Shown: positions 17,783 to 59,289 of the stretch, piece after piece
Position numbering within the stretch: the first letter of the stretch is position 1
Layout: each line of letters opens with the position of its first letter
The notes under the pieces: generated by a model
What the model was told of the DNA's origin: nothing
Seen by the model: the letters and a program-made list of their open reading frames with translations, nothing else
Database searches by the model: none
Program-made: the position numbers and the translations under genes
Source: Bacilli bacterium
GTDB taxonomy: Bacteria > Bacillota_I > Bacilli_A > RFN20 > CAG-826
Reading direction: 5' to 3'
DNA length: 64,000 nt
NCBI GenBank assembly: GCA_017477255.1
Contig: JAFUXB010000003.1
Location: 19,697-83,696 of the forward strand

Positions 17783-18124
17783 ATGGCAGTTTTAAAAAGA
17801 TATTTTGGTAGCCCATTACTTGAAATTTCTAATGGAACAATTAAAGAATACTTTGGTAAAAATTTATATCAAATTCAAGGAAACGTAGTCAAAGAATATT
17901 TCGGCAAGCCTTTATTTGAAATTGATGGTGATAGAATCAAAAGATATTTCGGAAGTCCTGTATTAGAAGTTAAAAATGGTGTTGTAAAAAGATATTTCGG
18001 AAGCCCGGTTGCAGAGATTAAAGGATCTACAATTAAAGAGTATTATGGTAGTCCTTTATATGAAATTCAAGGGTTTGTTTCTCATACAGAATTAATGGCT
18101 TTAATAGCAATTTTATTTGCATAA
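17783..18124 (+). CDS. Small protein made of six tandem 16-residue repeats plus a hydrophobic C-terminal tail
   Basis: Repeats with consensus x(I/V)K(R/E)YFG(S/K)P(L/V)xEIxGx, 48-nt period. AGGAG RBS upstream. C-terminal tail LMALIAILFA. Confidence 0.8.
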   Translation: MAVLKRYFGSPLLEISNGTIKEYFGKNLYQIQGNVVKEYFGKPLFEIDGDRIKRYFGSPVLEVKNGVVKRYFGSPVAEIKGSTIKEYYGSPLYEIQGFVSHTELMALIAILFA

Positions 18125-18148
18125 CCCTGCAGAACTTAACTATTTTTT
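18123..18148 (-). repeat. Dispersed repeat copy a (complement orientation)
   Basis: AACCCTGCAGAACTTAACTATTTTTT, overlapping the TAA stop of the repeat-protein gene and ending 8 nt before the next RBS. Confidence 0.8.
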
Positions 18149-18166
18149 AAGAAATTGGAGTATTTT

Positions 18167-19057
18167 ATGGATGAATTTAGAGATTTATTAACGAATAAAA
18201 AAGAAGAAGCTAATGTCTTTTTAGTTGGTGTCCCTTTTGATGGAAATGCTAGTGTTGGTAAAGGCACATCACATGCACCTAAAGTTTTAAGAGAATTAAG
18301 TTATGCCCTTCCTGCATTAGATAGATTAGGAAATGATTTGAGTAAACTTAAACTTTATGATCTAGGTGATATTGAAGTTAAAAAAGAATTTTTAAAATTA
18401 CATGAAGATTTTAAAAATGTTTTATATAAAGAAAAAGGTTTCCATTTAATTTTTGGTGGAGATCATTCAATTGCTATTGGAAGCGAAAGAGCGTTCTTTG
18501 ATTATGCAAAATCATTAGGAAAAGAACCAGTTATTATTCATATTGATGCCCATCCAGATATTTGTGATGTTTATGAAGATTCAAAATTCTCACATGCTTG
18601 CCCAATTTTTAGATCTTTAGAATATGGTTTTAAAGATGAAAATATAACATTGGTAGGAATTAGAGGTTTTGAAGCTCAAGAAATTGAAACTTTCAAAAAG
18701 CATCCTAAACTTGATGTTTTTAAAGCAGAAGATGTTAAAAAGATGGGTGTTGAAACTTTAATTTCTTATCTAAGAACAAAATATAGAGATCCAAAATACT
18801 TAATTTATATTAGTTATGATATCGATGCTAATGACCCAGCATATGCTCCAGGAACTGGAACTCCAGAAGCATTTGGACTTACAAATGAGCAAACTAGAGA
18901 AATAATTACAAGTATTGTTAGACATTTAAATGTTGATTCACTTGATATTGTAGAAGTTGCTCCACCACTTGATATTAACAATATAACAAGCTGGTTAGCA
19001 CTTAAAACTTTATATGAAGTTTTCTATGAATTACTTCAAAAACCATGCAAATCCTAG
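18167..19057 (+). CDS. Arginase-family hydrolase (agmatinase / formimidoylglutamase-like)
   Basis: Start set at ATG 18167 (GGAG 7 nt upstream). Mn-binding motifs GGDHSI, DAHPD and SYDIDANDP. Confidence 0.75.
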   Translation: MDEFRDLLTNKKEEANVFLVGVPFDGNASVGKGTSHAPKVLRELSYALPALDRLGNDLSKLKLYDLGDIEVKKEFLKLHEDFKNVLYKEKGFHLIFGGDHSIAIGSERAFFDYAKSLGKEPVIIHIDAHPDICDVYEDSKFSHACPIFRSLEYGFKDENITLVGIRGFEAQEIETFKKHPKLDVFKAEDVKKMGVETLISYLRTKYRDPKYLIYISYDIDANDPAYAPGTGTPEAFGLTNEQTREIITSIVRHLNVDSLDIVEVAPPLDINNITSWLALKTLYEVFYELLQKPCKS

Positions 19058-19072
19058 GTATTTTTTATAAAA

Positions 19073-19732
19073 ATGGAAAATTGGAGTGATTTTTTAGCTT
19101 TAGAAAAGAAGAAGGAATTCTTTTTAGAGTTACAAAATTTCATCAAAAAAGAAAGAGAAAATTATGTCATCTTCCCTAAAGAGGAAGATGTTTTTAAAGC
19201 TTTTGAACTTACCAATTTAAAAGACATAAAAGTTGTTATTTTTGGACAAGATCCTTACCCAAATGTTGGTCAAGCGATGGGTTTAGCTTTTAGTGTTCCA
19301 AAAGATATAAAATTACCACCTTCTTTAAAGAACATTTATAAAGAAATTGAAACAGAATTTGGCAAAGAATTTATTAATAGAGATGGCGATTTAACGTATT
19401 TAGCAAAGCAAGGAGTCTTACTTTTAAACCCAATTTTAACTGTTAGAGAAAAAGAACCATTAAGTCATGATAATGAATTGTATAAGCGATTTTTCATTGA
19501 TGTAATCGAAGAAATCGAACATAACGATAACCCTATTGTTTATTTATTATTTGGTGGAAAAGCTCATAAATACGAAAAATATATTACAAATAAAAATCAT
19601 TTAGTAATTAAAACAAATCATCCTTCACCATTAAGTGCAAATAGAGGTGGTTGGTTTGGCTCCAATTGTTTTAAAGAAGCAAATAATTTCTTAATTAAAA
19701 ATCAAATAAAGCCTATTGAATGGCTTAAATAA
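19073..19732 (+). CDS. ung: Uracil-DNA glycosylase
   Basis: GQDPYP water-activating loop and HPSPLSA motif; 219 aa. Confidence 0.92.
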   Translation: MENWSDFLALEKKKEFFLELQNFIKKERENYVIFPKEEDVFKAFELTNLKDIKVVIFGQDPYPNVGQAMGLAFSVPKDIKLPPSLKNIYKEIETEFGKEFINRDGDLTYLAKQGVLLLNPILTVREKEPLSHDNELYKRFFIDVIEEIEHNDNPIVYLLFGGKAHKYEKYITNKNHLVIKTNHPSPLSANRGGWFGSNCFKEANNFLIKNQIKPIEWLK

Positions 19733-19880: not shown

Positions 19881-20906
19881 ATGAAATTTAAAGAATTTGT
19901 TAAAAAATATGTACTTGAAATAGTTGCATGTTTTGTCTTTTTAGCCTTTATTGGATTTTCATTTATTCCATTAATTAAAGCTGAATACGATGGCGTAACT
20001 TATAATCTTTCAATTATGAGATTAATGCTTGGTGTTAAACTTACTGATGTTAGTTTAAGACCTGATGTAATGTTTATTACAATATTCATTATATTTGTAA
20101 TTTCTCCAATTTTAGTGGGGATTAGAAGTGTTTTTGTTGAAAAAGGCAAAGAAAATGTAGCTTCTAAATTATTAGTTGCAACTAATTGGCTTCTTATTGT
20201 TGCTAACATTTTAATGCTCATTTCATTTAGATATTTACCAGTTTATGATGAAGTATATGGAGCTATTGAAACTGAATTATTAGTCCTTCCAGCAATCTTA
20301 TATGTTGAAGCAAGTCTTGTTTTAATAATCTTTACTTTAAGAGTTTATTTCAGTGATAACAAGTTCAGTATTTTTGATTTAGTTGAAATGGCAATGCTTG
20401 TTGCTTTAGCAATTGGGTTAGATAAATTAGTTTTATGGAAAGCTCCAACTGGTGGAAGCATCAATTTATCATGTGTTGCTTTATGTATTTACGCTTATAG
20501 AAGGGGCGTTTTTAAAGGATTTATTGCCTCTTCAGTAATTTTTGGAATTTTATCATGTACTTTAGATGGCTATGGATTTCAAACTTATCCATTTGATTAT
20601 TTTATAGCGTTTAGTGGTTTTGCTTTATGTGGAATTAAAGTTAAATTATTTAAAGAAAAATTAAATTTCCTAAATATTGCTATATCATTTAGTATCGGTT
20701 GCATCGCAGGTTTTGCAACTAGAATGATTGGTTCAACAACATCATCAATGGTTTATTTCTTATCATATTTATCAGATCAAACTTTAAGAGGAGCATTAAT
20801 TTATAATGTTGCTTATATTGGACCAAGTGCAGGAATTGTTCTTGCTGTTTTAATTGCTTTAAGTAAACCAATCGAATTAATTGATAGGATTTATCCTGCA
20901 AAGTAA
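19881..20906 (+). CDS. ThiT-like thiamine ECF S-component fused to an extra N-terminal membrane domain
   Basis: Start set at ATG 19881. The C-terminal ~180 aa resemble ThiT (YRRGVFKGFIASSVIFGILS compared with LRRGLTAGLVGGLIWGIL). The N-terminal ~165 aa add 4-5 TM helices. Confidence 0.6.
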   Translation: MKFKEFVKKYVLEIVACFVFLAFIGFSFIPLIKAEYDGVTYNLSIMRLMLGVKLTDVSLRPDVMFITIFIIFVISPILVGIRSVFVEKGKENVASKLLVATNWLLIVANILMLISFRYLPVYDEVYGAIETELLVLPAILYVEASLVLIIFTLRVYFSDNKFSIFDLVEMAMLVALAIGLDKLVLWKAPTGGSINLSCVALCIYAYRRGVFKGFIASSVIFGILSCTLDGYGFQTYPFDYFIAFSGFALCGIKVKLFKEKLNFLNIAISFSIGCIAGFATRMIGSTTSSMVYFLSYLSDQTLRGALIYNVAYIGPSAGIVLAVLIALSKPIELIDRIYPAK

Positions 20907-22529: not shown

Positions 22530-22986
22530 AAATATAAAAACAAATACTAAAGAAGAAACTTTAGAACTTGGTAAAAAACTTTCTAATTTTTTATTTAAAG
22601 GTTCTGTTGTTTTATTGTGCGGTGATTTAGGGGCTGGTAAAACAACTTTAACTAAAGGTATTGGAAAAGGATTAGGAGTTGAAGAAGAAATTAATTCCCC
22701 AACTTTTAACATTTTAAAATGTTATTTTAATAAAACTTTAAATTTATATCACATTGATGCATATAGATTAGAAGATGTACCAGAAGAAAATAAAAATATA
22801 GGTTTAGAAGAAGTTATTGATGGTGATGGTTGTGCAATTATTGAATGGCCTCAATTTATAAGTGAGTTTATTGATTATAAAAAAGCATTAATAATCACAA
22901 TCACAATTGATGAAAATAATGTTAGAAATTTTAAGTTGGAAACTGAAAATTTGAAATTTGAGGGGCTTTTTGCAGGGTTATTATGA
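22522..22986 (+). CDS. tsaE: tRNA t6A37 biosynthesis ATPase TsaE
   Basis: P-loop GDLGAGKTTLTKG, SPTFNI motif. tsaE-tsaB-rimI-tsaD synteny. Confidence 0.9.
   Translation: MIKNIKTNTKEETLELGKKLSNFLFKGSVVLLCGDLGAGKTTLTKGIGKGLGVEEEINSPTFNILKCYFNKTLNLYHIDAYRLEDVPEENKNIGLEEVIDGDGCAIIEWPQFISEFIDYKKALIITITIDENNVRNFKLETENLKFEGLFAGLL
22968..22982 (+). repeat. Core-only copy of the dispersed repeat (TTTGCAGGGTTATT)
   Basis: Lies in the last codons of tsaE (LFAGLL*) and abuts the tsaB start. 14 nt identical to copy j. Confidence 0.5.
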
Positions 22987-23567
22987 TTAGTTTAATTTTA
23001 GACAGTACTAACAGAGACTTAAATGTTGGCTTAGGAATAGATGATAAATTAGTTGATTTTGTTAGTTATGAATGCTGGCAAAGACAATCTGAATCTATGA
23101 TTCCAGAAATTGAAAAGTTATTTTTAAAGCATCAAATTAATCCAAAAGATGTTAATGAAATAATCGTTACTAAAGGACCTGGAAGTTATACAGGTATGAG
23201 AATTGCTTTAACTATTGCTAAAATTTATTCTTATAGCTTAAACATTCCTTGCTATGCAATTAGTGCTTTAGCTGCTTTATCTTGCGAAGATAAAACTTCA
23301 ATTTGTTTAATGAATGCAAGAAGTGCAAGAAGTTATTTTGGCGTATATAAAAACGGAAATATTATCATTAGTGACACAATAAAAACTAACGATGAGGTCT
23401 TAGAATTCGCTTCTAAGCATCCTGAATATGTTCTTTGTGGAGATCTTGAATATTTAGATAAAGAAGGCTATAAAGCAAATGTTTTATATAACTTATTAAG
23501 ATTTAAAAGTGAAGCAAACAAAGTTGATGATATTTTCAAATTAAAGGCAGTTTATTTAAAGGATTAA
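22983..23567 (+). CDS. tsaB: tRNA t6A37 biosynthesis protein TsaB
   Basis: 194 aa. GPGSYTGMRI motif. ATGA overlap with tsaE. Confidence 0.88.
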   Translation: MISLILDSTNRDLNVGLGIDDKLVDFVSYECWQRQSESMIPEIEKLFLKHQINPKDVNEIIVTKGPGSYTGMRIALTIAKIYSYSLNIPCYAISALAALSCEDKTSICLMNARSARSYFGVYKNGNIIISDTIKTNDEVLEFASKHPEYVLCGDLEYLDKEGYKANVLYNLLRFKSEANKVDDIFKLKAVYLKD

Positions 23568-23568
23568 T

Positions 23569-24006
23569 ATGGAGTTAGTTAAAATTACAGATAAATTATT
23601 AGATGATGTTGTTTTAATTGAAAACGAATCTTTTAAAGCGCCTTTTAAAAAAGAGAACTTTGAATATGAATTAAAAGAGAATCCATTTTCAAAATTTTAT
23701 GGTGTAACTGAAGATAATAAACTTGTAGGTTACATTATATTTTGGATCACATTTAACACATCAACTCTTTGTAAAATCGCAGTTCAACAAAGTAAAAGAA
23801 ACAGGGGTTTTGCAGGGTTTTTGATGAAAAACATGGAAAAAATGTTATTAGAAAACGAAGTAGAAAGTATGACTTTAGAAGTAAGAAAATCAAACGAAAA
23901 CGCCATTAATTTATATAAGAAATTTGGCTTTAAAGAAATAACTATTAAACCAAAATATTATGATGATGGTGAAGATGCAATTTATATGGGGAAATTATAT
24001 TTATGA
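23569..24006 (+). CDS. rimI: Ribosomal-protein-alanine N-acetyltransferase (GNAT)
   Basis: 145 aa GNAT fold (QQSKRNRGFAGFLM acetyl-CoA loop). Position inside the tsa cluster. Confidence 0.8.
   Translation: MELVKITDKLLDDVVLIENESFKAPFKKENFEYELKENPFSKFYGVTEDNKLVGYIIFWITFNTSTLCKIAVQQSKRNRGFAGFLMKNMEKMLLENEVESMTLEVRKSNENAINLYKKFGFKEITIKPKYYDDGEDAIYMGKLYL
23808..23824 (+). repeat. Core-only copy of the dispersed repeat (TTTTGCAGGGTTTTTGA)
   Basis: Inside rimI, read as GFAGFL. 16/17 identical to the core of copy g. Confidence 0.6.
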
Positions 24007-26619: not shown

Positions 26620-27301
26620 GATTACTATTGTTATTATTATTTGAATTTATATTAGTACTATTATTAAAAATAGTGGCTAAATCAACATTATCTAAATTTT
26701 GAGAGAACATTGTTTCTCTCAATTTTTTTATTCTAAACATTCTTGCAATATAACCTTGAACATTTATTAAATACCAAATAATTCCTACCGCAAAGAATAA
26801 AGCAATAAAGTAATTTATCATTTGAACATTTAATAAGAAATGAGGAGTGTTTTTAAGTTCAACACCACCAATTCCAAATGGGAAAACATAATAAGCATTT
26901 GAGAAATCCCAAGTGAAAAATAATGTTCCAATTCCGGTTGTATCATTTAAAAATGATTCACCCCAATTACCTACAAATGAGTGGTAAGTGATCCATAATA
27001 AAAGTGCAAAAATTATAAAAATAACTGGGATTAGCGAGGTTTTGAAGAAATATTTCTTATTTTTAGTGCTTGCTACTGTGTAGAATTTTTGTTCCTCATC
27101 AATAAGTCCACTAAGAATAAGTGGTGCCATTAAACGATCAATTTTTCTTGATTGGAAATCAATAATTTTCTCTACTAATCTACCAACTAAACCAAAAATA
27201 GCAAAGAAAGCAATAATAACAAACAAAACAGCTAAAAGAATTTTCCAGAAATTGGAATCAGTAAATTTAGATAGCACTAGAAAATTAGTAAGTAAAGTCA
27301 T
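26609..27301 (-). CDS. Hypothetical polytopic membrane protein with Asn-rich C-terminal tail
   Basis: 230 aa, about 4 TM helices, tail NNSTNINSNNNNNSNLNQ. 17-nt overlap with the upstream gene suggests translational coupling. Confidence 0.7.
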   Translation of the reverse strand: MTLLTNFLVLSKFTDSNFWKILLAVLFVIIAFFAIFGLVGRLVEKIIDFQSRKIDRLMAPLILSGLIDEEQKFYTVASTKNKKYFFKTSLIPVIFIIFALLLWITYHSFVGNWGESFLNDTTGIGTLFFTWDFSNAYYVFPFGIGGVELKNTPHFLLNVQMINYFIALFFAVGIIWYLINVQGYIARMFRIKKLRETMFSQNLDNVDLATIFNNSTNINSNNNNNSNLNQ

Positions 27302-27745: not shown

Positions 27746-28714
27746 TTATACTTTATTTTTGATATTATTTAATATCAAAATTGTTAAATGTTTGATAGAA
27801 ATTAAAATTGGGAAAACTAGCATAATTACAAATGAATTTATAAGAGCGAAATTAGAATAAGTTGCAACATAAACTAGCCATGTAATTACTACTAAAACGA
27901 TAAAAATAATTGAGTTCTGCAGGGTTTTTGATTCAAAATCATATAAAATTGCAGATGAAACAACGCTTAAAAACATGAATAAATAAAAGAAGCTTATATC
28001 AAAAAAGTAATAAATTAATGATGTAATAGCTAAAGCAAAAGGAATAGTAGCTGATAATAAATAGTTTGTTTTAAATGATTCATTAATTTGATAAATCTTT
28101 TTAATTTCTCCTAAACTTATTAAAAGTAATATAAAGGTTTCAATTAAACTATAAGTGTAAATTATAGTTGGAATAAATATTTCTAAAATGCCTTCAACAT
28201 TTACATTTATTATTGCAAATAATTGATTAATCATTTTTACTTTGAATATAGCTTCGATTAAATATGTATTTCCAACATTAATTAAAGCAATAACAGTTGA
28301 AATTATAACAAGAATATATTTTAAACTTAGTTTTTGTTTGATTAATAATCCTAAAAAGAAACCTAAAATTAAACTTGGTAATAAATCAAATAAACAATAA
28401 GCTAAATTAAACATTGTAACAAGCACTGATAAAGCAAAAGTTACAACAAAAAATATTGGATAGAATCGACTTTTTATGAATAAACCAATTATTGCACAAG
28501 GGATTGGTAAAATAAAAATTAAAACCAAATTTAAAAAAGGAAAATAATTCATTAAAGCGATAATTACGATGCACAAAGCTGACATTAAAGCTATTAATGG
28601 AAGACTAGTTTTTAAGTTTTCTTTTTGTTCAAATAGTTTCATAATCTGATTACTTAAAATTATAAAACTATTTTTATTGTTTTTATATAAAAACAAATAA
28701 AAAAGTGCTATCAT
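27746..28714 (-). CDS. Hypothetical polytopic membrane protein (8-9 TM)
   Basis: 322-aa ORF. Start uncertain: ATG 28714 lies 6 nt from the divergent pcrA start, so the alternative ATG 28642 (MKLFEQKEN) may be the real one. Confidence 0.7.
   Translation of the reverse strand: MIALFYLFLYKNNKNSFIILSNQIMKLFEQKENLKTSLPLIALMSALCIVIIALMNYFPFLNLVLIFILPIPCAIIGLFIKSRFYPIFFVVTFALSVLVTMFNLAYCLFDLLPSLILGFFLGLLIKQKLSLKYILVIISTVIALINVGNTYLIEAIFKVKMINQLFAIINVNVEGILEIFIPTIIYTYSLIETFILLLISLGEIKKIYQINESFKTNYLLSATIPFALAITSLIYYFFDISFFYLFMFLSVVSSAILYDFESKTLQNSIIFIVLVVITWLVYVATYSNFALINSFVIMLVFPILISIKHLTILILNNIKNKV
27903..27931 (+). repeat. Dispersed repeat copy b (full length), inside a minus-strand CDS
   Basis: AAAATAATTGAGTTCTGCAGGGTTTTTGA. 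Read on the complement as (S)KTLQNSIIF within the membrane protein. Confidence 0.9.
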
Positions 28715-28720: not shown

Positions 28721-32928
<4,208 letters not shown>

Positions 32929-33227: not shown

Positions 33228-34697
33228 ATGCATTTTTTAGATTTAACAATTAGAGAAATTCATGAAGCTTTACTTGCTAAAAAAGTTACTGTAAGTGAGC
33301 TTGTTTTAGAAGCTCTTAAAAGAGCAAAAAATAATAATTACAATGCTTTTGAAACAATTTTAGAAGAAGAAGCAATTAAAAAAGCTCAAGAACTTGATAA
33401 ATTAGAAGTTCCTGCTGACAATTATTTATTTGGAATTCCATATGTTGCTAAAGATAATTTCAGCACAAAAGATATTGAAACAACTGCTAGCAGTAATATT
33501 TTAAAAGGTTATAAACCATTATTTAATGCTACTGTTATTGAAAAATTAAATGAAAAAGGAATGGTTTTAATTGGAAAAACTACCTTAGATGAGCTAGCAA
33601 TGGGTGGTACAGGAACTAGTGGTCATAAAGGAATTACTTATAACCCTTATGACAATAGTCATACTAGACTTGTTGGTGGATCAAGCTGTGGAAGTGCAGC
33701 TGCAGTAAGTGGAGCGATTGTTCCATTTGCTTTAGGAAGTGATACAGGTGATAGTGTAAGAAAACCTGCTTCATTTGCTGGACTTGTTGGTTTTAAACCA
33801 ACATGGGGAAGAATTTCTAGATGGGGATTATTTCCATTTGCACCAAGTTTAGACCATGTTGCATATTTTACAAGATCAGTAGATGATGCTGGTTTAATCT
33901 TAAATTGCTTATCTGGAAGAGATGAAAAAGATTTCACTTCAAGTTTAAAACCTGTGAATAACTATGATTTAAATCACACTGTAAATTTAAAAAATATAAA
34001 AATAGGTGAGATTTGCGGGGTTATTGATTCAATTACAGATAAAAACGTTTTAAATGATTTCAACAATTTAGTAGAAAAGTTAAATAAAGAAACAAAAGTT
34101 GAAAAAGTTAATTTTGATACAAAATTATTAGAATCAATTTATCCAGCTTATGTTGTTATTAGCTGTGCCGAAGCTACAAGTAATAACGCAAATTTAGATG
34201 GAATTAAATTTGGTCCATATTATGATGGAAAAACTTATCAAGATGTTATGATGCAAGCTAGAACTAATGGCTTCTCAGAACTTATTAAAAGAAGATTTGT
34301 TATTGGTAGTTATTGCTTAATGAGAGAAAACCAAGAAGAATTATTTTTAAGAGCTCAAAGAGTTAGAAGATTAATTGTCGATGCATTCAATGAAAAACTT
34401 GATGAATATGACGTCTTAATTGCTCCAGCAGCACCATCAATTGCATCATTAATTAATAATTCTAGTGATAAATTATCATCAGAATATTTAATTGCTGATA
34501 ACTATTTAGCATATGCAAACTTTGGTGGTCAACCATCTATTACTATCCCACTTGGTTTTGAAAACGGTATGCCATTTGGTGTTAATTTAACTTCCAAAAT
34601 ATTTAATGAAGAAGAACTTTTATACATTGCAAAAGAATTTGAAAAAATACTTGGATTTAAGAACTTAAGTATTAACAACATGAAAGGAGGCAAATAA
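33228..34697 (+). CDS. gatA: Asp/Glu-tRNA amidotransferase subunit A
   Basis: Amidase signature GGSSCGSAAAVSG...GSDTGDSVRKPA. Confidence 0.93.
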   Translation: MHFLDLTIREIHEALLAKKVTVSELVLEALKRAKNNNYNAFETILEEEAIKKAQELDKLEVPADNYLFGIPYVAKDNFSTKDIETTASSNILKGYKPLFNATVIEKLNEKGMVLIGKTTLDELAMGGTGTSGHKGITYNPYDNSHTRLVGGSSCGSAAAVSGAIVPFALGSDTGDSVRKPASFAGLVGFKPTWGRISRWGLFPFAPSLDHVAYFTRSVDDAGLILNCLSGRDEKDFTSSLKPVNNYDLNHTVNLKNIKIGEICGVIDSITDKNVLNDFNNLVEKLNKETKVEKVNFDTKLLESIYPAYVVISCAEATSNNANLDGIKFGPYYDGKTYQDVMMQARTNGFSELIKRRFVIGSYCLMRENQEELFLRAQRVRRLIVDAFNEKLDEYDVLIAPAAPSIASLINNSSDKLSSEYLIADNYLAYANFGGQPSITIPLGFENGMPFGVNLTSKIFNEEELLYIAKEFEKILGFKNLSINNMKGGK

Positions 34698-34698: not shown

Positions 34699-36123
34699 AT
34701 GAATTTTGAAGCTGTTATTGGTCTTGAAATACATGTTGAATTAAAAACAAAAACTAAAATGTTTTCAGATGCACCTATAAATTTCAATGATGAACCAAAT
34801 ACTGATGTTCAACTTTTAGATATGGCCTTCCCAGGCACAATGCCAAGAGTTAACAAAGAAGCAGTAAGGTTTGCAATTAGAATGTGTAATGCTTTACACA
34901 TGGAAATCGATAAAGAAATTTGGTTTGATAGAAAGAATTATTTCTATAGTGATTTACCAAAAGGATTCCAAATTACTCAACAATTTAAACCTATAGGAAA
35001 AGAAGGTTATCTTGAAATTGAAGTAGATGGAAAATTAAAGAAAATTGAAATTGAACGTTTACATATGGAAGAAGACACATGTAAACAATTACACTTTAGC
35101 GATTATTCTTTGCTTGATTATAATCGTGCTGGTGTTCCTTTAATTGAAATCGTTTCTAAACCATTAATGAGAAGTGGTGAAGAAGCAAGAAAATATGTCG
35201 ATAAAATCAGAGAATTAGTTACTTTTGCTAATGTTAGTGATGGAAAGATGGAAGAAGGAAGCTTACGTTGTGACGTAAATATTTCTCTTAGACCTTATGG
35301 ATCAGATAAATTTGGTACTAAGGTCGAAATTAAAAACTTAAATAGTATTGCCAATATTGAAAAAGCAATTGATTATGAAATTAAAAGACAATCAGAGCTT
35401 TTATTCTTAGGAAAATCAATTCAACAAGAAACACGTAGATATGATGAAGCTAAAAAAGAGACTGTTTTAATGAGAGTTAAAACTGATGCTGCAGATTATA
35501 AATATTTTGTTGAACCAAATATTTTCCCAATTTTATTAACTGATGAGTTCGTTCAAGATGCAATTGATACTTGTCCAGAATTATATGATGCAAAATTAAA
35601 GAGATTCATTTCTCAATATCAATTAGAAGAAGTTGATGCAAAGATTTTAATAAATAATGAGGGTTTTGCAGACTTTTTTGAAAAAACATGCGAATTTTCT
35701 AAGAATTTTGTAGCTATTTCAAAGTTCTTAATTAGTGACGTTATGGGTTATTTAAACAAAGAGAATTTACCAATTAGTAGTTTTCCAGTAGATTGCAAGT
35801 ATATTGCTGAGATGGTTGACTTACTTAAGAGCAATGAAATTAATTCATCTCAAGGTAAACAAGTGTTTGCAAAATTATTAGTTGAAAATAAATCGCCATT
35901 ACTGATCAAAGAAGAATTAGGATTTACTTTAATTAATGATGAAGATGCAATTTTAAATATTATCAGAAGAGTTTTAAATGAAAATCCAACACTTATTGAT
36001 GACTTTAAAGCTGGTAAAACTCGTGTTCAAGGCTTTATTATGGGCCAAGTTATGAAAGAAACAAAAGGAAAGGTAAATCCTGGAGTTGCAAATAAATTAA
36101 TCTTACAAGAATTAAATAAATAA
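34699..36123 (+). CDS. gatB: Asp/Glu-tRNA amidotransferase subunit B
   Basis: 474 aa. AVIGLEIHVELKT N-terminus and GatB/YqeY C-terminal domain. Confidence 0.93.
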   Translation: MNFEAVIGLEIHVELKTKTKMFSDAPINFNDEPNTDVQLLDMAFPGTMPRVNKEAVRFAIRMCNALHMEIDKEIWFDRKNYFYSDLPKGFQITQQFKPIGKEGYLEIEVDGKLKKIEIERLHMEEDTCKQLHFSDYSLLDYNRAGVPLIEIVSKPLMRSGEEARKYVDKIRELVTFANVSDGKMEEGSLRCDVNISLRPYGSDKFGTKVEIKNLNSIANIEKAIDYEIKRQSELLFLGKSIQQETRRYDEAKKETVLMRVKTDAADYKYFVEPNIFPILLTDEFVQDAIDTCPELYDAKLKRFISQYQLEEVDAKILINNEGFADFFEKTCEFSKNFVAISKFLISDVMGYLNKENLPISSFPVDCKYIAEMVDLLKSNEINSSQGKQVFAKLLVENKSPLLIKEELGFTLINDEDAILNIIRRVLNENPTLIDDFKAGKTRVQGFIMGQVMKETKGKVNPGVANKLILQELNK

Positions 36124-40273: not shown

Positions 40274-40275
40274 AA

Positions 40276-40304
40276 AAATATAGGTTAAATGCCTATATTT
40301 TTTA
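40276..40304 (+). terminator. Rho-independent terminator after galE
   Basis: Stem AAATATAGG / CCTATATTT, loop TTAAATG; the TTTTTT run begins within the 3' arm of the stem (40298-40303). Confidence 0.7.
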
Positions 40305-41567: not shown

Positions 41568-41574
41568 TTGAAAT

Positions 41575-41604
41575 TCAAAAACCCTGCAAATCTTTATTAT
41601 TTTT
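41575..41604 (-). repeat. Dispersed repeat copy h (full length, complement orientation)
   Basis: TCAAAAACCCTGCAAATCTTTATTATTTT. Its reverse complement matches copy g at 27 of 29 positions (29 of 31 if the alignment is extended two bases past the TTGA end). Starts 7 nt after the maa stop and ends 7 nt before the next ATG. Confidence 0.9.
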
Positions 41605-41611
41605 GTAAATT

Positions 41612-44182: not shown

Positions 44183-44814
44183 TGAATGATTTAGAAAATT
44201 TAAAAGTTTTATTTACAGGAGAGAAAGAAGAAGTTTATAAAGCTCTCCAAGAAAAAAGTACTTGGATTGATAAAGTTTTTTATATTCCTGGAAACATTGA
44301 TCAATCTTTTGATGAACATGGAAAAGTGCATTATAAATTTATTGAAAGTGTTTATAATGGAACTTTCTTATTTAAAAAAATAGATGTTGATTCATTAAAA
44401 GTTGATGATGATTTTAAAAATAGAATTAGAAATTTTTCTAATGATTTAAGAATTTTACATTTATATGATACAATTGATAAATCAATAGATGTTCCATTTT
44501 GGATTGAAGTTGATTTTAAAAAAGCAGAGCTTTCTTTCTATAGAGATTTATTCCCAAATTTTTATAGATGTTTAGGTGAAGAAGTTTTAAGTGATTTAAA
44601 AGAAGAAGATGAAGCTTTTAACTTATTTAAAACCTTAATTTATGGAAAAACCCTGCAGAACTCAATTATTTTATACGAAAATAAATTAATTGATGATCAA
44701 TATTATTGTCCAATTATGTCTAAAATCTATCATTTAAAAGGGATAGATAATTCATTAATTGAGTCGTTAGAAGAAATTGCAAATACACACGGAGTAGAAG
44801 TAGAGGAAATTTAA
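44182..44814 (+). CDS. Hypothetical protein (210 aa), translationally coupled to glpK
   Basis: TAATG overlap with the glpK stop. No recognised domain. Contains repeat copy d in frame. Confidence 0.65.
   Translation: MNDLENLKVLFTGEKEEVYKALQEKSTWIDKVFYIPGNIDQSFDEHGKVHYKFIESVYNGTFLFKKIDVDSLKVDDDFKNRIRNFSNDLRILHLYDTIDKSIDVPFWIEVDFKKAELSFYRDLFPNFYRCLGEEVLSDLKEEDEAFNLFKTLIYGKTLQNSIILYENKLIDDQYYCPIMSKIYHLKGIDNSLIESLEEIANTHGVEVEEI
44646..44673 (-). repeat. Dispersed repeat copy d (complement orientation), inside a CDS
   Basis: AAAAACCCTGCAGAACTCAATTATTTTA, read as KTLQNSIIL. 28/28 identical to 45936-45963. Confidence 0.9.
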
Positions 44815-45933
44815 ATGGCAAAACCTTTAAGCAAAGAAATGTTTAATTTAGTCCTTACTTATCTTAATGTAGTTGAAACATTAGATAAGGATTTTCTTTA
44901 TGATATCTATGAAGTTGTAAATGATGGAATTGATGGACTTATTAATAACGAAGAAAATAAAGCAATTCGTTTTGTTCCAGTAAATCCAATTTCTGTAATT
45001 TTATATATCTTAAATGAATATGTTTATTCAATTAAAGGTTTAAATAAAGAACAAATTGAAAAATTATCTAGTGATGAAAATTTTGCTAGTAAATTAGCAT
45101 CAATTTGTGCTGATAAATATATTACAAATGAACAATTAAATTTCAAAACTGTTAAGTTTATGAACAAGTATAATCCTCCGATTTCATCGTTAGAATTGTA
45201 CTTAAATTTTGCTCTTAGAAGCTTAAATAATATTAAAAGTGATAACCCATATGATAACCTTGTTTCAGACATGCTTAAAAAAGCATTTGGACTTGGTCAA
45301 TGTATCTTAAATTTATTAATTGATGGTTTTGAAACTGAAGCATTTTCTACTTGGAGAACACTTCACGAAAATGAATGTATTTTAATTTGTTTAATTAAAA
45401 ACGGTGAACCAATGTTTAGATCATATTTTAAACATATTAAATATGCTTTAGCTTATAGAGGTCAAATTAAATCAAAAGAAGAAACAGATCAAATCTTTGC
45501 AGAAATTAAAGAAGAAATGAAGAAATATGATTTAAAGAGCAAAGATATGAAGAAATTCATTGAATATGGCTATCTTTTTGAAGTTGAAGGTATCAAATTA
45601 AATGATGACTTCAAACTTAATTTTAGAGATGGTGTTCAAAAACTTGCTGGATTAGGTAGATATTCAAAAGTTTATGAAATGAGTAGTGAAATTTCACACA
45701 GTTCCCCATTATTGCTTTTTTCAAGTAAGGAATATTATTTTACAATTACAATTAAGCATTTATATGAATCTTTCTTTAGATTAGAAGATATTTTTGATAA
45801 ATTCTATAAGTCATTTGTAAGTAAAGATTTCTATAATCAATACTTAGTTTTAAAGAGTACTTACATGCAACAACTCCAATATATTTATAGAACAATTGGT
45901 CCAATTAATATCTTAGATAAAGCAGAGAATTAA
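44815..45933 (+). CDS. Hypothetical protein (372 aa), all-helical by composition
   Basis: ATG abuts the stop of the preceding gene. No domain confidently recognised; the central WRTLHENE ... SEISHSSP pattern vaguely recalls DUF5677. Confidence 0.65.
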   Translation: MAKPLSKEMFNLVLTYLNVVETLDKDFLYDIYEVVNDGIDGLINNEENKAIRFVPVNPISVILYILNEYVYSIKGLNKEQIEKLSSDENFASKLASICADKYITNEQLNFKTVKFMNKYNPPISSLELYLNFALRSLNNIKSDNPYDNLVSDMLKKAFGLGQCILNLLIDGFETEAFSTWRTLHENECILICLIKNGEPMFRSYFKHIKYALAYRGQIKSKEETDQIFAEIKEEMKKYDLKSKDMKKFIEYGYLFEVEGIKLNDDFKLNFRDGVQKLAGLGRYSKVYEMSSEISHSSPLLLFSSKEYYFTITIKHLYESFFRLEDIFDKFYKSFVSKDFYNQYLVLKSTYMQQLQYIYRTIGPINILDKAEN

Positions 45934-45963
45934 TCAAAAACCCTGCAGAACTCAATTATTTTA
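45934..45963 (-). repeat. Dispersed repeat copy e (full length, complement orientation)
   Basis: TCAAAAACCCTGCAGAACTCAATTATTTTA, starting at the first base after the TAA stop. Followed by a terminator. Confidence 0.9.
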
Positions 45964-45964
45964 C

Positions 45965-45996
45965 AAAAAAATGACTCCGAAGAGTCATTTTTCTTT
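45965..45996. terminator. Bidirectional Rho-independent terminator between convergent genes
   Basis: Stem AAATGACTC / GAGTCATTT, loop CGAA, with an A-run on the left and a T-run on the right. Confidence 0.8.
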
Positions 45997-50444: not shown

Positions 50445-50445
50445 T

Positions 50446-51963: not shown

Positions 51964-52826
51964 TGGCAAAAAACATTATCAAAGTTAAAAAGAGAATTGC
52001 TACAGTTAAATCTACTCGTAAAATTACTAACTCAATGAAACTTGTTAGTAGTGTTAAGGTTAGAAAATTAACTAAGGAATATAGTGCAAATTGTGCTTAT
52101 TTTGACGAACTCTTAAAACTTTTTGATAAGTCAATTTTCTATGTCGAAGATGAAAAAATCACCTTTGATTCACCTTATTTAAAAGAAAATAATTCCTCAA
52201 ACAAAACTCTCTATATTATCATTTCTTCAAATATGGGGCTTTGTGGATCATATAATGCAATGTTATTTAAATTCTTTGAAGAAATATATAAAACTGATGA
52301 TGAAATTATTGTTATTGGTAAAAAAGGAATTAACTATTTTAAAGATTTTGAGAAAAAAGAGGCGGATTTTGCAGGGATTTTGCATCATATAAGTATTGAT
52401 GATGTTTACAAATTAACAAATTACATCATGAAAAAATATGAAAGTGGAGAATTTAAAGAAATCAAATTTGTCTATGAAAAATATATCAATTCTTTAAAAT
52501 TCAAACCTTCAACTTTCAAAATTTTGCCTATTGAAGTTAAAACAAAACCTTTTACAGATTCATTTGAACCAATATATGAAGAAGGAAAAAATAACTTTAT
52601 TCAAAGCTTTATTCCTGAATTTGTAAAAAGTTGTGTTTTACATATTTTATATGAAGCAAGTTTAAGTGAAGAAACTAATAGAAGAAATTCTATGGATAAC
52701 GCAAATAAAAATATTGATGAATTATTAAAAGATTTAAATCTTGAATATAACAAAGCTCGTCAAGCAGCCATTACAAATCAAATTAATGAAGTTGTTAGTG
52801 GCGCTCAAGCAATTAAGAATGATTAG
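51963..52826 (+). CDS. atpG: F0F1 ATP synthase subunit gamma
   Basis: 287 aa. N-terminal IKKRIATVKSTRKITNSMKLVS and C-terminal ITNQINEVVSGAQA. Confidence 0.93.
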   Translation: MAKNIIKVKKRIATVKSTRKITNSMKLVSSVKVRKLTKEYSANCAYFDELLKLFDKSIFYVEDEKITFDSPYLKENNSSNKTLYIIISSNMGLCGSYNAMLFKFFEEIYKTDDEIIVIGKKGINYFKDFEKKEADFAGILHHISIDDVYKLTNYIMKKYESGEFKEIKFVYEKYINSLKFKPSTFKILPIEVKTKPFTDSFEPIYEEGKNNFIQSFIPEFVKSCVLHILYEASLSEETNRRNSMDNANKNIDELLKDLNLEYNKARQAAITNQINEVVSGAQAIKND

Positions 52827-54654
<1,828 letters not shown>

Positions 54655-54656
54655 TT

Positions 54657-55853
54657 ATGAAAAATTTTGTTTTTATTTCACCTCATTTTCCTGATAATTT
54701 TTGGAAATTCTGTTTAGCATTAAAAGATAGAGGTTTTAATGTGTTAGGAATTGGCGATGCACCATTTAATGAAATTAGTGATGAGTGCAAATTCGTTTTA
54801 ACTGAATATTATGTTTGTCCAAATATGGATGAATTTGAAAACGAAGTTGAAGCAGTAAGATATTTTAAAGAAAAATATGGACCAATTGATTATCTAGAAT
54901 CAAATAACGAATATTGGCTTGAAAAAGATGCTAAACTTCGTGAAATTTTTGATATTCCTCATGGACCTTATACAAAGCAAGTCCAATATTTTAAAAAGAA
55001 ATCTTTGCAAAAAGAAATTTTAATTAAAAACAATATTAAATGTGCTGATTATACTTTAGATATTACTAAAGAAGGACTTGAAAAATTTGCAAAAAAAGTT
55101 GGTTTTCCAATTTTTGCTAAACCTGATAATGGTGTTGGTGCAATTGGTACATTTAAGATGAATTCTTCTGATGACATCGATGAATTCCTTTCTAAGAAAG
55201 ATGATTCTCAATATATAGCTGAACAATTTATCGATGGAAAAATTATTTCTTTTGATGGAATTTGTAATTCACACAGTGACTTATTATTTTTCACATCACA
55301 CGAATTCTCAGATAACATTTCAAACATTGTAAAAACTGGTGCTGATGAAATGTATTTCTGCACAGGCGACGTTGATGTAACTTTAGAACAATTAGGAAGA
55401 CAAGTTGTTAAAGCATTTAATCTTCAAAATAGATTTTTCCATATCGAATTCTTTATTTTAAATAAAGATCATAAAGGATTAGGAAATAAAGGCGATTATA
55501 TTATTTTAGAACCAAATATGAGACCTGCTGGAGGATATACAACAGATATGATTAACTATGCTAATAGTTTAAACTGTTACACCATTTACGCAGATTCAAT
55601 TGCTTATGATTCAACACTCGAGCAACCTCATGACAAGAAATATTTTGCAATATGTTCTAGTCGTCGATATAATAACTTATATAGATTTAGTGATGAAGAA
55701 ATAATTGAAAAATATGCACCAAATATTTGTATGAGAGGAGTTTTCCCTAAAATCTTAAGTAGTGCTATGGGTGATATTTATTACATTGCTAAATTCAATA
55801 CAAAAGAGGAAATGTTTGAATTCGATAAATACGTTAGAGAAAAAAATAGTTGA
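54657..55853 (+). CDS. ATP-grasp domain protein of unknown specificity
   Basis: 398 aa. ATP-grasp-like central region (KKSLQKEIL..., [21 protein letters not shown]..., [10 protein letters not shown]). The last 3 codons and TGA lie inside repeat copy f. Confidence 0.55.
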
Positions 55854-55870
55854 GTTCTGCAGGGTTTTTG
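55843..55870 (+). repeat. Dispersed repeat copy f (full length)
   Basis: AAAATAGTTGAGTTCTGCAGGGTTTTTG. Spans the ATP-grasp stop codon (TGA within TTGAG) and ends 7 nt before the ppa RBS. Confidence 0.9.
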
Positions 55871-55888
55871 TTAAAAAAGGAGAGTTTT

Positions 55889-57281: not shown

Positions 57282-57330
57282 GCCTTAATATAATACACAA
57301 TTTTTTATAAATTGTGTTATTATTTTTGTT

Positions 57331-57855
57331 ATGATTACTATTATTTTATACCAACCAGAAAAACCTTCCAACCTTGGAAACATTATGAGAACTTGTATGG
57401 CTACTGGGTCAAAACTCGTTGTCATTGGTCCTTTAACTTATACTTTAGATGATAAGAGTTTAAAAAGAGCTGGAATGGATTATATAGATGAGCTTGATTT
57501 TGAATTTTATGATTCTTACGATGGCTTCTTAAAAAAATACAAAAACAAAAATATTTATTACGTTACTCGTTATTCTAAAAATTTATATAGTGATGTAGAT
57601 TTTTCTAATGTAGTAGAAGATGTATTTTTAATGTTTGGGAAGGAATCTAGTGGAATCCCACATGATATTTTAAGAGAGAATTTTGAAAAAACCATCAGAA
57701 TTCCGATGGTTATTGATGCTAGAAGCTTAAATTTATCTAATTGTGTCGCTTTAGTTACTTATGAAGTATTAAGACAAAGAAAGTTTTTTGGTTTAGCAAC
57801 ACATGAAACAATTAAAGGCGAAGATTTCTTGTTTGAAGAAGTTAAAAACGATTAA
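57331..57855 (+). CDS. trmL: tRNA 2'-O-methyltransferase TrmL (SpoU/TrmH family)
   Basis: 174 aa. PSNLGNIMRTC, FGKESSGIP and IPM..DARSLNLSN knot motifs. Confidence 0.8.
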   Translation: MITIILYQPEKPSNLGNIMRTCMATGSKLVVIGPLTYTLDDKSLKRAGMDYIDELDFEFYDSYDGFLKKYKNKNIYYVTRYSKNLYSDVDFSNVVEDVFLMFGKESSGIPHDILRENFEKTIRIPMVIDARSLNLSNCVALVTYEVLRQRKFFGLATHETIKGEDFLFEEVKND

Positions 57856-59215
57856 CTTCATTAAATAATTCATTAAAATTGTTTGTTATTTTTCTTATTG
57901 TATAACTTTCATATTTTAATAAATTTACTAAACCTAAAGTACCAGATTTTTTAACATTGCTTATTTTTGTATATTGAAGTTCACCATCATTCTTATTTGA
58001 TAAATAAAGAGCAAGTTCTAAAGCAAAAGTAATAATTTCATCAGATGGATTTTCATCAAAAATAACAACGTGAGATCCATGAAGATCTTTTATATGAACA
58101 AAATAATCATTTTTCCTAGCTAATTTAAATGTTAATTCATTGTTTTGTTTTGCATTTTTTCCAAAACCAATTCTAACTCCATTTTTTAAAAAATAGTAAG
58201 GTTTTGAAGGGTTTTTCTTTAAATTTGCAGGGTTTTTGATTTTAAATTCAACAATTTTTCTTTCTTTAAGTTCGTCAATTAAATCTAAATAATCATCCTC
58301 TTTGTATAAAGAAGTACAGTTTAAAATTGACTCAATATAATCGACTTCATTTTGCGATTCATCAATGTATTGATCAAGCATTTTTAAAGATGTTTTTGCT
58401 TTTTTATAAATCTTAAAAAATTTCTGTGATAAATCAGCAGGATTTAAATTATATTTAGTAATATCAATACCAATTAATTCAGTTGAAGAACCAGGATTTT
58501 CATTTAATTCATCTAAATAAGAAAGAATTAATTCGCCATAATCCTTATAAACTAAATTCTCTTTAGCTTTTTCTTTTTCTTCAATAAGTTTTTTAACTTT
58601 TGTCACTAAAGATTTATGCTTTCTTTTTAAAGAAATTAAGATTGGATTATATTTTTCCTTTAAATATGAATCTTCAATAGTTTTTGGATAATTTGAAACG
58701 AATTCTTCCTTATTAAATTCTTTAAATTCAGATATTTTTTGAGGTGGGAGATAACTTAAACCATGAATTATCGGATGTTTAGTTTCAATTCCTCTATATC
58801 TAAGAGCAAAAGATATTTTATTTTCTTCTAAAAGTATAATATTTGGGTTAGCTTTAAAAAGTTCAACAATTAAAGAATAGTGAATTTTATCATAAGTTTC
58901 AGTTGTTTTGATAAAATCCATTTTAACGATGTTATCACCATTAACTGTGCTAATATCAATAAAATGTGAGTTCAATAATTTATTTTTAATATTGTTTAAA
59001 AAGAAGGTTGTATTTGAGAAATTAATCTTATCATCAATGACGTTTATAAAAGGATAAGTAGTGTTTAAACTGATTATTAAACTTTTGCCTTTCCCTTTTG
59101 AAAAAGAAATAACCAAATCTAATTTACTGGGTGAGTAAATTTTATTTATAAATGAATGCAAAAACTCGTTTTTAATGTTGTTTATGTTTTCAATTAATTT
59201 CTCATAAATGTTCAT
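57842..59215 (-). CDS. NFACT-family protein (RqcH/FbpA-like, short form)
   Basis: 457 aa. N-terminal NFACT-N-like region and C-terminal NFACT-R/DUF814 motif (FVHIKDLHGSHVVIF). 14-nt convergent overlap with trmL. Confidence 0.65.
   Translation of the reverse strand: MNIYEKLIENINNIKNEFLHSFINKIYSPSKLDLVISFSKGKGKSLIISLNTTYPFINVIDDKINFSNTTFFLNNIKNKLLNSHFIDISTVNGDNIVKMDFIKTTETYDKIHYSLIVELFKANPNIILLEENKISFALRYRGIETKHPIIHGLSYLPPQKISEFKEFNKEEFVSNYPKTIEDSYLKEKYNPILISLKRKHKSLVTKVKKLIEEKEKAKENLVYKDYGELILSYLDELNENPGSSTELIGIDITKYNLNPADLSQKFFKIYKKAKTSLKMLDQYIDESQNEVDYIESILNCTSLYKEDDYLDLIDELKERKIVEFKIKNPANLKKNPSKPYYFLKNGVRIGFGKNAKQNNELTFKLARKNDYFVHIKDLHGSHVVIFDENPSDEIITFALELALYLSNKNDGELQYTKISNVKKSGTLGLVNLLKYESYTIRKITNNFNELFNEVNRF
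58222..58239 (+). repeat. Dispersed repeat copy i (core AATTTGCAGGGTTTTTGA), inside a minus-strand CDS
   Basis: Read on the complement as IKNPANL in the NFACT protein, a different frame from copies b/d. Confidence 0.7.
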
Positions 59216-59260
59216 AATAATATTTTAAAAGTATTATAGAAATAAATCTACAAATTTATA

Positions 59261-59289
59261 AAAATAGTTAAGATTTGCAGGGTTATTGA
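59261..59289 (+). repeat. Dispersed repeat copy j (full length, 3 mismatches to copy g)
   Basis: AAAATAGTTAAGATTTGCAGGGTTATTGA, in the spacer between the apt terminator and the NFACT gene start. Confidence 0.85.

Follow-up and report, generated by a model that had tools for sequence, protein, structure and literature searches.

The window analysed here, a 64,000-nucleotide stretch of contig JAFUXB010000003.1 from a Bacilli bacterium (assembly GCA_017477255.1), carries a short dispersed repeat, an asymmetric word of about 20-30 bp with a G/C-containing centre and the family form AAAATAGTTGAG-TTCTGCA-GGGTTTTTG. The repeat is abundant, is restricted to one clade, occurs irrespective of orientation, takes on different dialects in different genomes, and lies over protein-coding genes by substitution; at one orthologous site the copy follows the dialect of the genome in which it stands. 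This family is undescribed so far, and a search of the literature with its sequence returned unrelated oligonucleotides only. We tentatively interpret the repeat as a DNA-uptake-enhancing self-tag kept by molecular drive, similar to the uptake signal sequences (USS) of Pasteurellaceae and the DNA uptake sequences (DUS) of Neisseriaceae, an interpretation that we consider possible but short of probable.

Abundance and distribution of the repeat

The window has exactly 7 occurrences of the 13-mer TGCAGGGTTTTTG, as the first-pass annotation of this DNA had counted, and 100 dinucleotide-preserving shuffles give 0.00. When up to 2 mismatches are allowed there are 17 matches against 1.95 expected, and the 7-mer TGCAGGG also has 17 occurrences. 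We described the family by a weight matrix of 37 columns trained on 72 copies from the window and related genomes (consensus AAAAAAATAGTTGAGTTCTGCAGGGTTTTTGAAAAAA; total information about 40 bits), and called a copy in the window at a score of at least 8 bits, with a strong set at 20 bits or more. The matrix finds 22 copies in the window, 15 of them strong, at a spacing of about one copy per 3 kb. There is no match at or above 12 bits in Markov-1 shuffles and no non-trigger match at or above 8 bits in 90 kb of low-GC DNA from unrelated genomes, and the matrix with its centre masked has no non-trigger match in 216 kb of control DNA. An origin by chance, which had already been excluded from the 13-mer count, or as a codon artefact is ruled out by the shuffles, the mismatch count, the matrix and the unrelated low-GC controls. 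All eight copies previously listed as near-full-length were recovered at their places and on their strands, the core-only and weaker copies listed beside them score as members of the family, and the matrix adds further copies to that list (see the table).

The window has about 28% GC and is about 94% coding (6.1% non-coding), with a gene order of the Bacilli type (tsf-pyrH-frr-cdsA-dxr-rseP-polC; tsaEBD; pcrA-ligA-gatCAB; galM-galK, galE; glpK; the atp operon, ppa and rqcH), and its genes were annotated by Pfam scans. By polC, its gene order and the related metagenome-assembled genomes the window belongs to the Bacilli, and an affiliation with Campylobacterota, suggested at first sight by the atp operon and GC content, was rejected. 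The first 18 kb, which hold housekeeping genes throughout, polC included, contain 1 copy where 8 are expected (P = 0.0025). The earlier statement that this part has no copy is therefore nearly right, the single copy being a degenerate one within dxr (3356-3392).

Labels of the type L144 denote loci of related or control genomes that were compared with the window. The sister loci among them were picked by arginase homology, not by the motif, are syntenic with positions 18-29 kb of the window, and were scored with the central 7 columns of the matrix masked. These loci carry 0.14-0.24 copies per kb, and the load extrapolated from them and from the window would be a few hundred copies per Mb of genome. 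We also surveyed the clade with the 18-mer AGWTYTGCAGGGTTTTTG, taking one genome per species and counting the matches listed. At least 14 species represented by metagenome-assembled genomes (MAGs) carry the motif, with differing flanks and centres, and among the matches listed the genomes with multiple matches are all uncultured low-GC Bacilli MAGs from gut or rumen. The carriers include SUG1359, SRP141132_co3_321, BRZ_QT__bin77, O80_L2 bin.52, BRZ_E bin40, E22 bin81, O103, O104 and RGIG4434, together with Candidatus Onthovivens, a 'Mollicutes' bin and others, and carrier genes are about 70% identical to those of the window at the DNA level. Relatives with a PRK-like protein 51-58% identical show neither a copy nor a repeated 11-mer in about 110 kb of 26-31% GC.

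Matches outside the clade were examined as well. A phage-borne family was rejected because all 9 viral matches are single chance matches in contigs of 43-55% GC, and a plasmid-borne one because the plasmid search gave no match. The non-clade matches to the 18-mer are single chance matches or belong to the conserved coding stretch VAEFCRVFDMNV (Clostridium, Anaerocolumna, Sporomusa), and were rejected as family members. This clostridial-type stretch (..GKKVAEFCRVFDMNVLAYARN..) is found in L028, L060, L081, L090, L105, L016, L025, L039 and L106; its gene looks dehydrogenase-like from the peptide, and the match is a coincidence at the peptide level with the element's only open frame, not part of the repeat family. 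In a Bacteroidales MAG (L108, 3100-3340), three direct copies of CCAGCAGGGGCAGTTTTGCAGGGTTTTTGCCCCTGGT at a spacing of 53-116 bp make up an unrelated hairpin repeat or array that contains the 18-mer.

Several public metagenome assemblies contain contigs that match the window at 96-100% identity, and the species is present in the runs SRR12529324, SRR12529329, SRR12529340 and DRR595528. Many of these contigs have an end exactly inside a copy: L129 corresponds to positions 45933-59285 of the window, L139 to 40251-45961, and L130 ends at 55843. A public contig of the same species, 18148 bp long, suggests another assembly break at the copy 18113-18149. Contigs of the same species, 99-100% identical, start or end inside the copies at 45929, 55840, 40242 and 18113, and a repeat of about 30 bp therefore breaks (de Bruijn) assemblies.

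Overlay within genes, gain in a spacer, and dialects

To show how copies sit in genes, we compared nine in-gene copies from eight genes with homologues; eight of the copies show no insertion, and for one, in CysS of L021, two gaps of 3 residues leave the alignment ambiguous. A homologue search with the DUF2232-like gene gave a single distant match, the ABC-FtsX proteins compared proved not to be orthologues, the window and L074, like L020 and L023, were too diverged or lacked synteny for alignment, and exact look-ups of AtpD and MazG were negative. GatA is colinear at the element with 2df4 and 4wj3, and PcrA with PcrA 1pjr and UvrD1. AtpG is gap-free there against the ATP synthase gamma subunit 6q45, as are KsgA of L098 against a solved homologue and the DUF2232-like protein (copy 27900) against three orthologues with which it is colinear, and RqcH has no insertion at its elements relative to RqcH of B. 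subtilis. In GalK, the residues NEFCRVFKEK of the window face KEFSYFYKED of L102 at equal length, with about 6 substitutions within 20 bp, and the galK copy is kept in a strain 97.7% identical. Since in-gene copies align without insertion, they arose by substitution, and the suggestion of a miniature element inserted in frame, in the manner of the Rickettsia palindromic elements (RPE), is rejected, the ambiguity in CysS notwithstanding. The lysine-rich linker of rqcH holds two overlapping antisense copies 21 bp apart (58187-58244, plus strand), which encode KIKNPANLKKNPSKPYYF.

The forward strand of the element carries TAG and TGA in two frames, and so the high-scoring sense copies use the single open frame (10 cases); the only copies in the stop-bearing frames are degenerate ones in which these stops are gone. 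Stop codons can also be provided by the element itself. It was correctly noted before that a copy supplies the TAA of galE and another the TGA of the ATP-grasp gene, and the element overlaps two further stops, those of the open reading frame (ORF) 17783-18124 and of the arginase gene.

We classified the gene context of 89 strong copies (20 bits or more) in the window and in 46 loci of the clade, and find 48 intergenic, 14 over gene ends and 27 inside ORFs. In tandem spacers the element is sense to the genes in 13-14 cases and antisense in 11-15, and convergent spacers hold 10-12 copies against 3-4 in divergent ones (P = 0.06). The first-pass annotation placed most copies in the gap between a stop codon and the next ribosome-binding site (RBS) or terminator; in the window only 6 of 22 are mostly non-coding, yet with 6.1% non-coding DNA this is a strong enrichment (P = 0.0016). 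Of the window's 7 copies that are intergenic or overlap a stop, 3 adjoin a terminator whose hairpin is independent of the element. The presence of copies in both orientations, inside coding sequences and in several reading frames, also noted earlier, is borne out. Over the window the copies divide 16(+):6(-) (P = 0.05), with a ratio of 13:2 in genes, on the G-rich leading strand, and 3(+):4(-) in intergenic DNA. The GC skew of this strand is about +0.2, and the difference between 13:2 and 3:4 is what is expected if in-gene copies grow from compositionally favoured proto-sites.

A spacer between the arginase gene and UDG shows a different mode of origin. In L150 (TAA/ATG) and L152 (TAAat/ATG) the arginase stop abuts the UDG start, whereas in the window, L144 and L145 the junction is about 25 bp longer, and the extra DNA is the element in reverse orientation, which in each of these genomes stands at a distance of 5 nt from the UDG ATG. 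In L148 a forward copy, only partial, runs over the ATG. Judged by these junctions, at least one spacer copy added about 25 bp of DNA to its site. At one further junction the element faces one way in BRZ_QT77 and the other way in SUG1359. Among 39 strong copies none was found with a flanking direct repeat of 4-5 bp, as a target-site duplication would leave, and there are no terminal inverted repeats beyond the 6-bp CAAAAA/TTTTTG, so the marks of a miniature inverted-repeat transposable element are not seen. Among strains 96-99% identical, copies are unchanged in presence.

The outer parts of the element, TAGTTGAG and GGGTTTTT, are conserved, while the centre varies by lineage (TGCAGGG, TAGAGGG, TAAAGGG). 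In L145 (arginase 76% identical to that of the window) 5 copies in 21 kb have the form AAAATAGTTGAG-TTTTAGA-GGGTTTT, with centre TTTTAGAGGG, and in L144 (77%) 3 copies in 21 kb read ..TTTAG-TTTTAAA-GGGTTTTTT, with centre TTTTAAAGGG. L150 (73%) has 2-3 copies in 15 kb of the type TGCAG(G/C)G, L148 (70%) has weak copies only, of GATTTGCAAWGTTTTT forms, and L152 (67% amino-acid identity) has no copy; dialect calls rest on 3-5 copies per sister locus. The flanks have their own dialects, with GAGTTC in SUG1359, GAGATC in SRP141132 and GAGTTT in O80 and BRZ. Copies of the SUG1359 form ATTTTTACAAAAATAGTTGAGTTCTGCAGGGTTTTTGAGAAATTT are near-identical over about 45 bp, the SRP141132 form is ..AAAAAATAGTGGAGATCTGCAGGGTTTTTG.T.AAAAA.., and the O80 and BRZ form comprises little beyond TGAGTTTTGCAGGGTTTTTG.

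The copy at the arginase-UDG junction is orthologous in three genomes and has the centre TGCATGG in the window, TAAAGGG in L144 and TAGAGGG in L145. Read from these sequences, it is close to the dialect of its own genome in each of the three, and this is the single clean orthologous site. Matches in the GNAT gene show a similar behaviour: L145 has one at the same offset as in the window, and there is also a match in L150, with the centre read as GFAGFL vs GLGGFL by hand translation. One L144 copy retains TGCAAGG, which suggests that the turnover of the centre is ongoing.

Copies also lie at segments that differ between related genomes. In the window galE is followed by the element with its terminator, an AAA_33 kinase gene and tRNA-Gln, whereas in SUG1359 (L045) galE abuts tRNA-Gln and there is no copy; the galE copy is kept in strains 96-99% identical. 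The part missing in SUG1359 is 40279-40793 of the window, from the terminator through the AAA_33/KTI12-like kinase gene, with the copy at its start. Downstream of glpK, three species have hyp210 plus DUF5677 (44182-45933 in the window), DUF5677 alone, or two unrelated ORFs, and each of these loci (the window, L074 6400-8000 and L062 1-2400) has a copy that differs in place and orientation. The gene 44182-44814 is missing between glpK and DUF5677 in L074, where a forward copy is found instead. A 770-bp segment with two small ORFs that follows the peptidase M3 gene of L144 (1025-1794) is absent in L145 (1799-1807), and it opens with a copy, 1065-1101(-). Three variable segments thus start at or hold a copy, an association that was seen post hoc and, with about 16% of junctions carrying copies, has a chance of about 2-3%.

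Copies of the repeat in the window, with matrix scores and their status in the first-pass annotation (start or position given there in brackets)
Positions	Strand	Score (bits)	First-pass status	Location
3356..3392	+	22.9	not listed	degenerate copy ATAAAAATAAGTGGGATTTGCATGGTTTTTCAG in dxr (ORF 3256-4452), sense
18113..18149	-	35.9	near-full-length (18123)	near-full copy filling spacer before arginase gene; overlaps stop of ORF 17783-18124
19031..19067	-	28.7	not listed	over arginase stop and spacer before UDG; orthologous copy in sister species
20106..20142	+	9.4	not listed	weak copy in Thia_YuaJ-like gene
22953..22989	+	8.3	core-only (22968)	weak, tsaE 3' end / tsaB start (..GLFAGLL, then stop)
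23793..23829	+	33.6	core-only (23808)	in gene, on GNAT acetyltransferase RxxGxA motif (RGFAGFL)
27015..27051	+	12.2	not listed	weak, antisense in hypothetical gene 26609-27301(-)
27900..27936	+	48.8	near-full-length (27903)	near-perfect, antisense in DUF2232-like membrane protein gene (FESKTLQNSIIFI)
30001..30037	+	17.1	core-only (30016)	degenerate copy in pcrA (EAGFAGLSM)
33996..34032	+	34.8	not listed	in gatA (IKIGEICGVIDSI)
35649..35685	+	8.2	weaker core-only (near 35659)	weak copy in gatB
37147..37183	+	27.7	core-only (37159)	over galK N-terminus (NEFCRVFKEK)
40242..40278	+	48.7	near-full-length (40245)	near-perfect, supplies galE TAA, then terminator hairpin
41570..41606	-	34.0	near-full-length (41575)	fills 44-bp spacer, hexapeptide transferase / DNA-alkylation-repair-like gene
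42139..42175	-	16.4	not listed	degenerate, antisense in gene 41612-42286
44639..44675	-	44.5	near-full-length (44646)	near-perfect, antisense in hypothetical gene 44182-44814 (GKTLQNSIILY)
45929..45965	-	46.8	near-full-length (45934)	near-perfect, convergent DUF5677 / PRK-like gene junction, directly after terminator hairpin
52352..52388	+	20.4	weaker core-only (near 52365)	degenerate copy in atpG (EADFAGILHH)
55840..55876	+	52.2	near-full-length (55843)	best copy; supplies TGA of ATP-grasp gene, directly before ppa RBS
58187..58223	+	27.1	not listed	antisense in rqcH linker
58208..58244	+	15.4	core-only (58222)	second, overlapping copy in rqcH linker (KIKNPANLKKNPS)
59258..59294	+	41.0	near-full-length (59261)	between two minus-strand genes, abuts terminator 59298-59317(-)

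Two other features of the window are recorded here. A purine riboswitch aptamer (RF00167, 48.2 bits) at 59969-60067(+) lies upstream of two genes, 60156-61403 for a Bmp/PnrA-type substrate-binding protein and 61446-63101 for an ABC ATPase, and the riboswitch-led cluster 59969-63101 is probably a purine-nucleoside uptake operon. An ORF of 1065 residues at 10886-14083(+), between tRNA-Arg and an ABC/FtsX pair, is without any Pfam match.

Readings of the repeat

A signal acting at the DNA level and neutral to expression is supported, as the first-pass annotation had it in preference to a peptide, RNA structure or promoter, by the lack of orientation preference, of a fold and of an Rfam match and by the use of several frames. 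In the interpretation that we tentatively favour, the repeat would be a lineage-specific tag, AAAATAGTTGAG / variable 7-bp centre / GGGTTTTT, that is read on double-stranded DNA by a trans-acting reader whose specificity may drift between species. The copies differ in behaviour from insertions of a classical transposon. They would arise, and stay similar to one another, at any place that the genome can bear, behind stops, by terminators and in poorly conserved protein stretches, and within genes they would be placed in whichever frame is free of the element's TAG and TGA. The engine would be a biased uptake of tag-bearing DNA in natural transformation, followed by homologous replacement, which amounts to molecular drive. 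We infer that the reader would be the DNA-uptake machinery and that the drive would act via transformation. Published accounts of DUS and USS describe dialects, copies in genes as well as between them, a place in permissive regions, constraints of frame, a share of about half in terminators, flanks rich in AT, and molecular drive (bioRxiv 10.1101/2025.10.24.684340; PMC7811141). The repeat described here is likewise a motif shared by a family of genomes with dialects, and is found in both orientations, in genes and in spacers and in permissive DNA, with stop frames avoided. Restriction to a lineage, independence of orientation, an asymmetric word rich in information and flanked by AT tracts, overlays by substitution, the scarcity of copies in the first 18 kb and the concerted change of the centre belong to the same set. 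We rank the uptake reading first because this combination of traits is the published footprint of uptake-enhancing sequences, and of the four hypotheses put forward by the first-pass annotation the USS/DUS-like one appears to fit best, on account of the dialects, the substitution overlays, the avoidance of stop frames and the accumulation in permissive DNA.

Uptake-enhancing sequences have been described only for Neisseriaceae and Pasteurellaceae (bioRxiv 10.1101/2025.10.24.684340). The repeat may conceivably, and we put this more guardedly than the uptake reading in general, represent the first such system outside Proteobacteria, with a bipartite tag of about 29 bp that would discriminate self from foreign DNA and a centre that would co-evolve with a putative receptor (e.g. 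ComEA or a minor pilin of the ComG type). Were this uptake reading true, sequence-specific uptake would have evolved beyond the two known families, and the natural series of dialects (TGCAGGG, TAGAGGG, TAAAGGG) would offer a route to the co-evolving reader. Were it wrong, the family would still be unusual, since a repeat that enters genes length-neutrally and is alike throughout the genome points to an undescribed process of drive or gene conversion.

Several observations weigh against an uptake tag. Pfam scans find no competence genes in the window; a rough scan of loci totalling about 0.5 Mb, by a pilin regular expression and a ComEA consensus, finds no pilin or ComEA either, in far too little sequence to weigh. 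Uptake specificity is not known from any Gram-positive bacterium. The density of 0.08-0.35 copies per kb is below the roughly 1 per kb of USS and DUS, and an inverted partial core lies near only 6 of 76 copies, so that inverted terminator pairs like those of DUS are rare here. The near-identity over about 45 bp in SUG1359 is more than a receptor needs and looks like copying, and the spacer gain at the arginase-UDG junction tells in the same direction. Copies are found at or inside variable segments, although they are absent from viral contigs and plasmids, while DUS and USS are depleted in newly acquired DNA (PMC7811141). The evidence for dialects and concerted evolution, finally, is drawn from a small number of copies (3-5 in each sister locus) and from a single clean orthologous site.

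Because of the low density, the rare inverted pairs, the near-identity over about 45 bp and the 25-bp spacer gain, a selfish miniature repeat remains the main rival, though we regard it as rather doubtful. Such a repeat would spread through templated gene conversion over short patches, or by transposition of an unknown kind, with its A-/T-rich ends as microhomology; it would have no host function, and the dialects would be successive master copies. The near-identical SUG1359 copies and the junction longer than in L150 and L152 accord with this, as do the occupation of the same junction in opposite orientations in different species, the copies that border variable segments, the lack of strand bias in intergenic copies and the weak CAAAAA...TTTTTG termini. 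It is harder to reconcile with the absence of target-site duplications and of real terminal inverted repeats, and with gene content, there being no transposase, recombinase or RAYT gene in the window or the annotated sister loci and no HUH gene in the window. The in-gene copies compared (GatA, PcrA, GalK, RqcH, AtpG, KsgA and the DUF2232-like protein) add no length, the family is absent from viral contigs and plasmids, and the orthologous copy tracks the dialect of its genome rather than decaying. Species whose housekeeping genes are only about 70% identical in nucleotides also have a conserved core of about 20 bp in common, which implies a conserved reader. A reader could also be a clade-specific chromosomal protein, either a nucleoid or segregation factor or the recipient of a Chi-like self signal that tempers a nuclease, with an array of binding sites kept site by site by selection; we think this unlikely. 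The word is bipartite, with the half-sites TAGTTGAG and GGGTTTTT about one helical turn apart around a variable centre and A/T tracts flanking it in phase, and it is written over genes by substitution, like Chi and KOPS, with the in-gene copies 13:2 on the leading, G-rich strand. However, the intergenic copies are unpolarised (3:4) and the in-gene bias is explicable by a GC skew of about +0.2 that favours G-rich proto-sites, whereas Chi, KOPS and SRS are 5-8 bp long and strongly polar. Moreover, about 40 bits is far above the need for a few hundred sites, and the fast turnover of the centre between sister species is hard to obtain under site-by-site selection.

The two remaining explanations are of much lower probability. 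Recombination sites at the borders of exchangeable gene cassettes, which had been among the proposals of the first-pass annotation, are improbable and fared poorly: three variable segments begin at or contain a copy, and conserved arms around a variable 7-bp centre recall a crossover spacer, but the arms are not inverted copies of each other and thus lack a dyad architecture, the segments are not bracketed by two consistently oriented copies, and Pfam scans find no recombinase nearby. Recombination between copies that lie in both orientations within essential genes would be lethal, and the co-occurrence of segment and copy was noticed post hoc, with a chance of roughly 2-3%. A signal at the level of RNA or transcription (promoter, terminator, 3' untranslated region element or small-RNA target) is very improbable, in spite of the enrichment behind genes (convergent over divergent spacers), the several copies that adjoin terminators, and the case of L009, where the right half of the element makes a perfect 13-bp terminator stem together with a partial inverted copy downstream of it. 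Sense and antisense copies are equally common, and folding of both strands against shuffles gives z-scores of -0.9 to +1.6, with no REP-type hairpin. The earlier statement that the element has no internal dyad holds in that neither strand has a significant fold, and needs amending for the weak 6-bp terminal symmetry CAAAAA...TTTTTG. A search of the window with Rfam 15 returned two tRNAs and the purine riboswitch alone and nothing at the copies even at E<=1. A structured RNA, a REP hairpin and a terminator were rejected for want of a fold, an Rfam match and more than a few inverted partners, and a sigma-70 promoter because putative -10 boxes stand at varying distances and copies occur in convergent junctions and antisense to genes. 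Near-perfect copies sit in the middle of long genes (a 1884-residue helicase-like ORF, an ABC-FtsX fusion and CysS), and the element therefore cannot be a terminator or roadblock. At L021 2421-2524 (SRP141132), one spacer holds two direct copies 67 bp apart, the first of which pairs with the intervening CAAAAACCCC in a terminator-like hairpin.

Comparison with known systems

The repeat differs from sites of the dif, lox and attC type in that its arms are not inverted copies and that no cognate recombinase is found in the window or the annotated sister loci. With REP/BIME, REPIN, STAR, BOX, RUP and Correia elements it shares the character of a short dispersed repeat behind genes in both orientations, here one that breaks short-read assemblies, but it has no palindrome or hairpin, terminal inverted repeat, target-site duplication, RAYT or transposase, and some two thirds of the window's copies are length-neutral overlays in genes, which is not the way of REP-type elements. 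Like RPE, copies are found inside ORFs and are translated; RPE, however, are insertions of 100-150 bp that add residues, whereas the genes compared here are colinear with their homologues, CysS being ambiguous. Chi and KOPS/SRS are read on DNA by host machinery, and are 5-8 bp long and strongly co-oriented with replication. The repeat is similar to them as a G-rich asymmetric word laid over coding sequence by substitution, and unlike them in being a word of 20-30 bp with unpolarised intergenic copies.

The likeness is closer to the uptake sequences. As in Neisseriaceae DUS, a family-wide motif has an invariant sub-core and lineage-specific dialect positions, and is strongly enriched in intergenic DNA and near terminators. 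DUS differ in being 10-12 bp long, many of them as inverted pairs that form a terminator, whereas the copies here are single, with 6 of 76 partnered; we know of no ComP-type receptor in the clade that carries the motif. Compared with Pasteurellaceae USS, the host is a Gram-positive-type member of the Bacillota without an outer membrane, the density is 3-10 times lower, the sequences are unrelated, and the conserved stretch is longer, with near-identity up to about 45 bp within one genome. Both, however, are asymmetric words, some 29-32 bp long, in which AT-rich flanks in phase surround a core containing G/C, and both occur in either orientation, in genes and spacers, with species dialects. Both are depleted in strongly constrained genes, and in both the in-gene copies came about by substitution, with a bias of frame, where the protein is poorly conserved.

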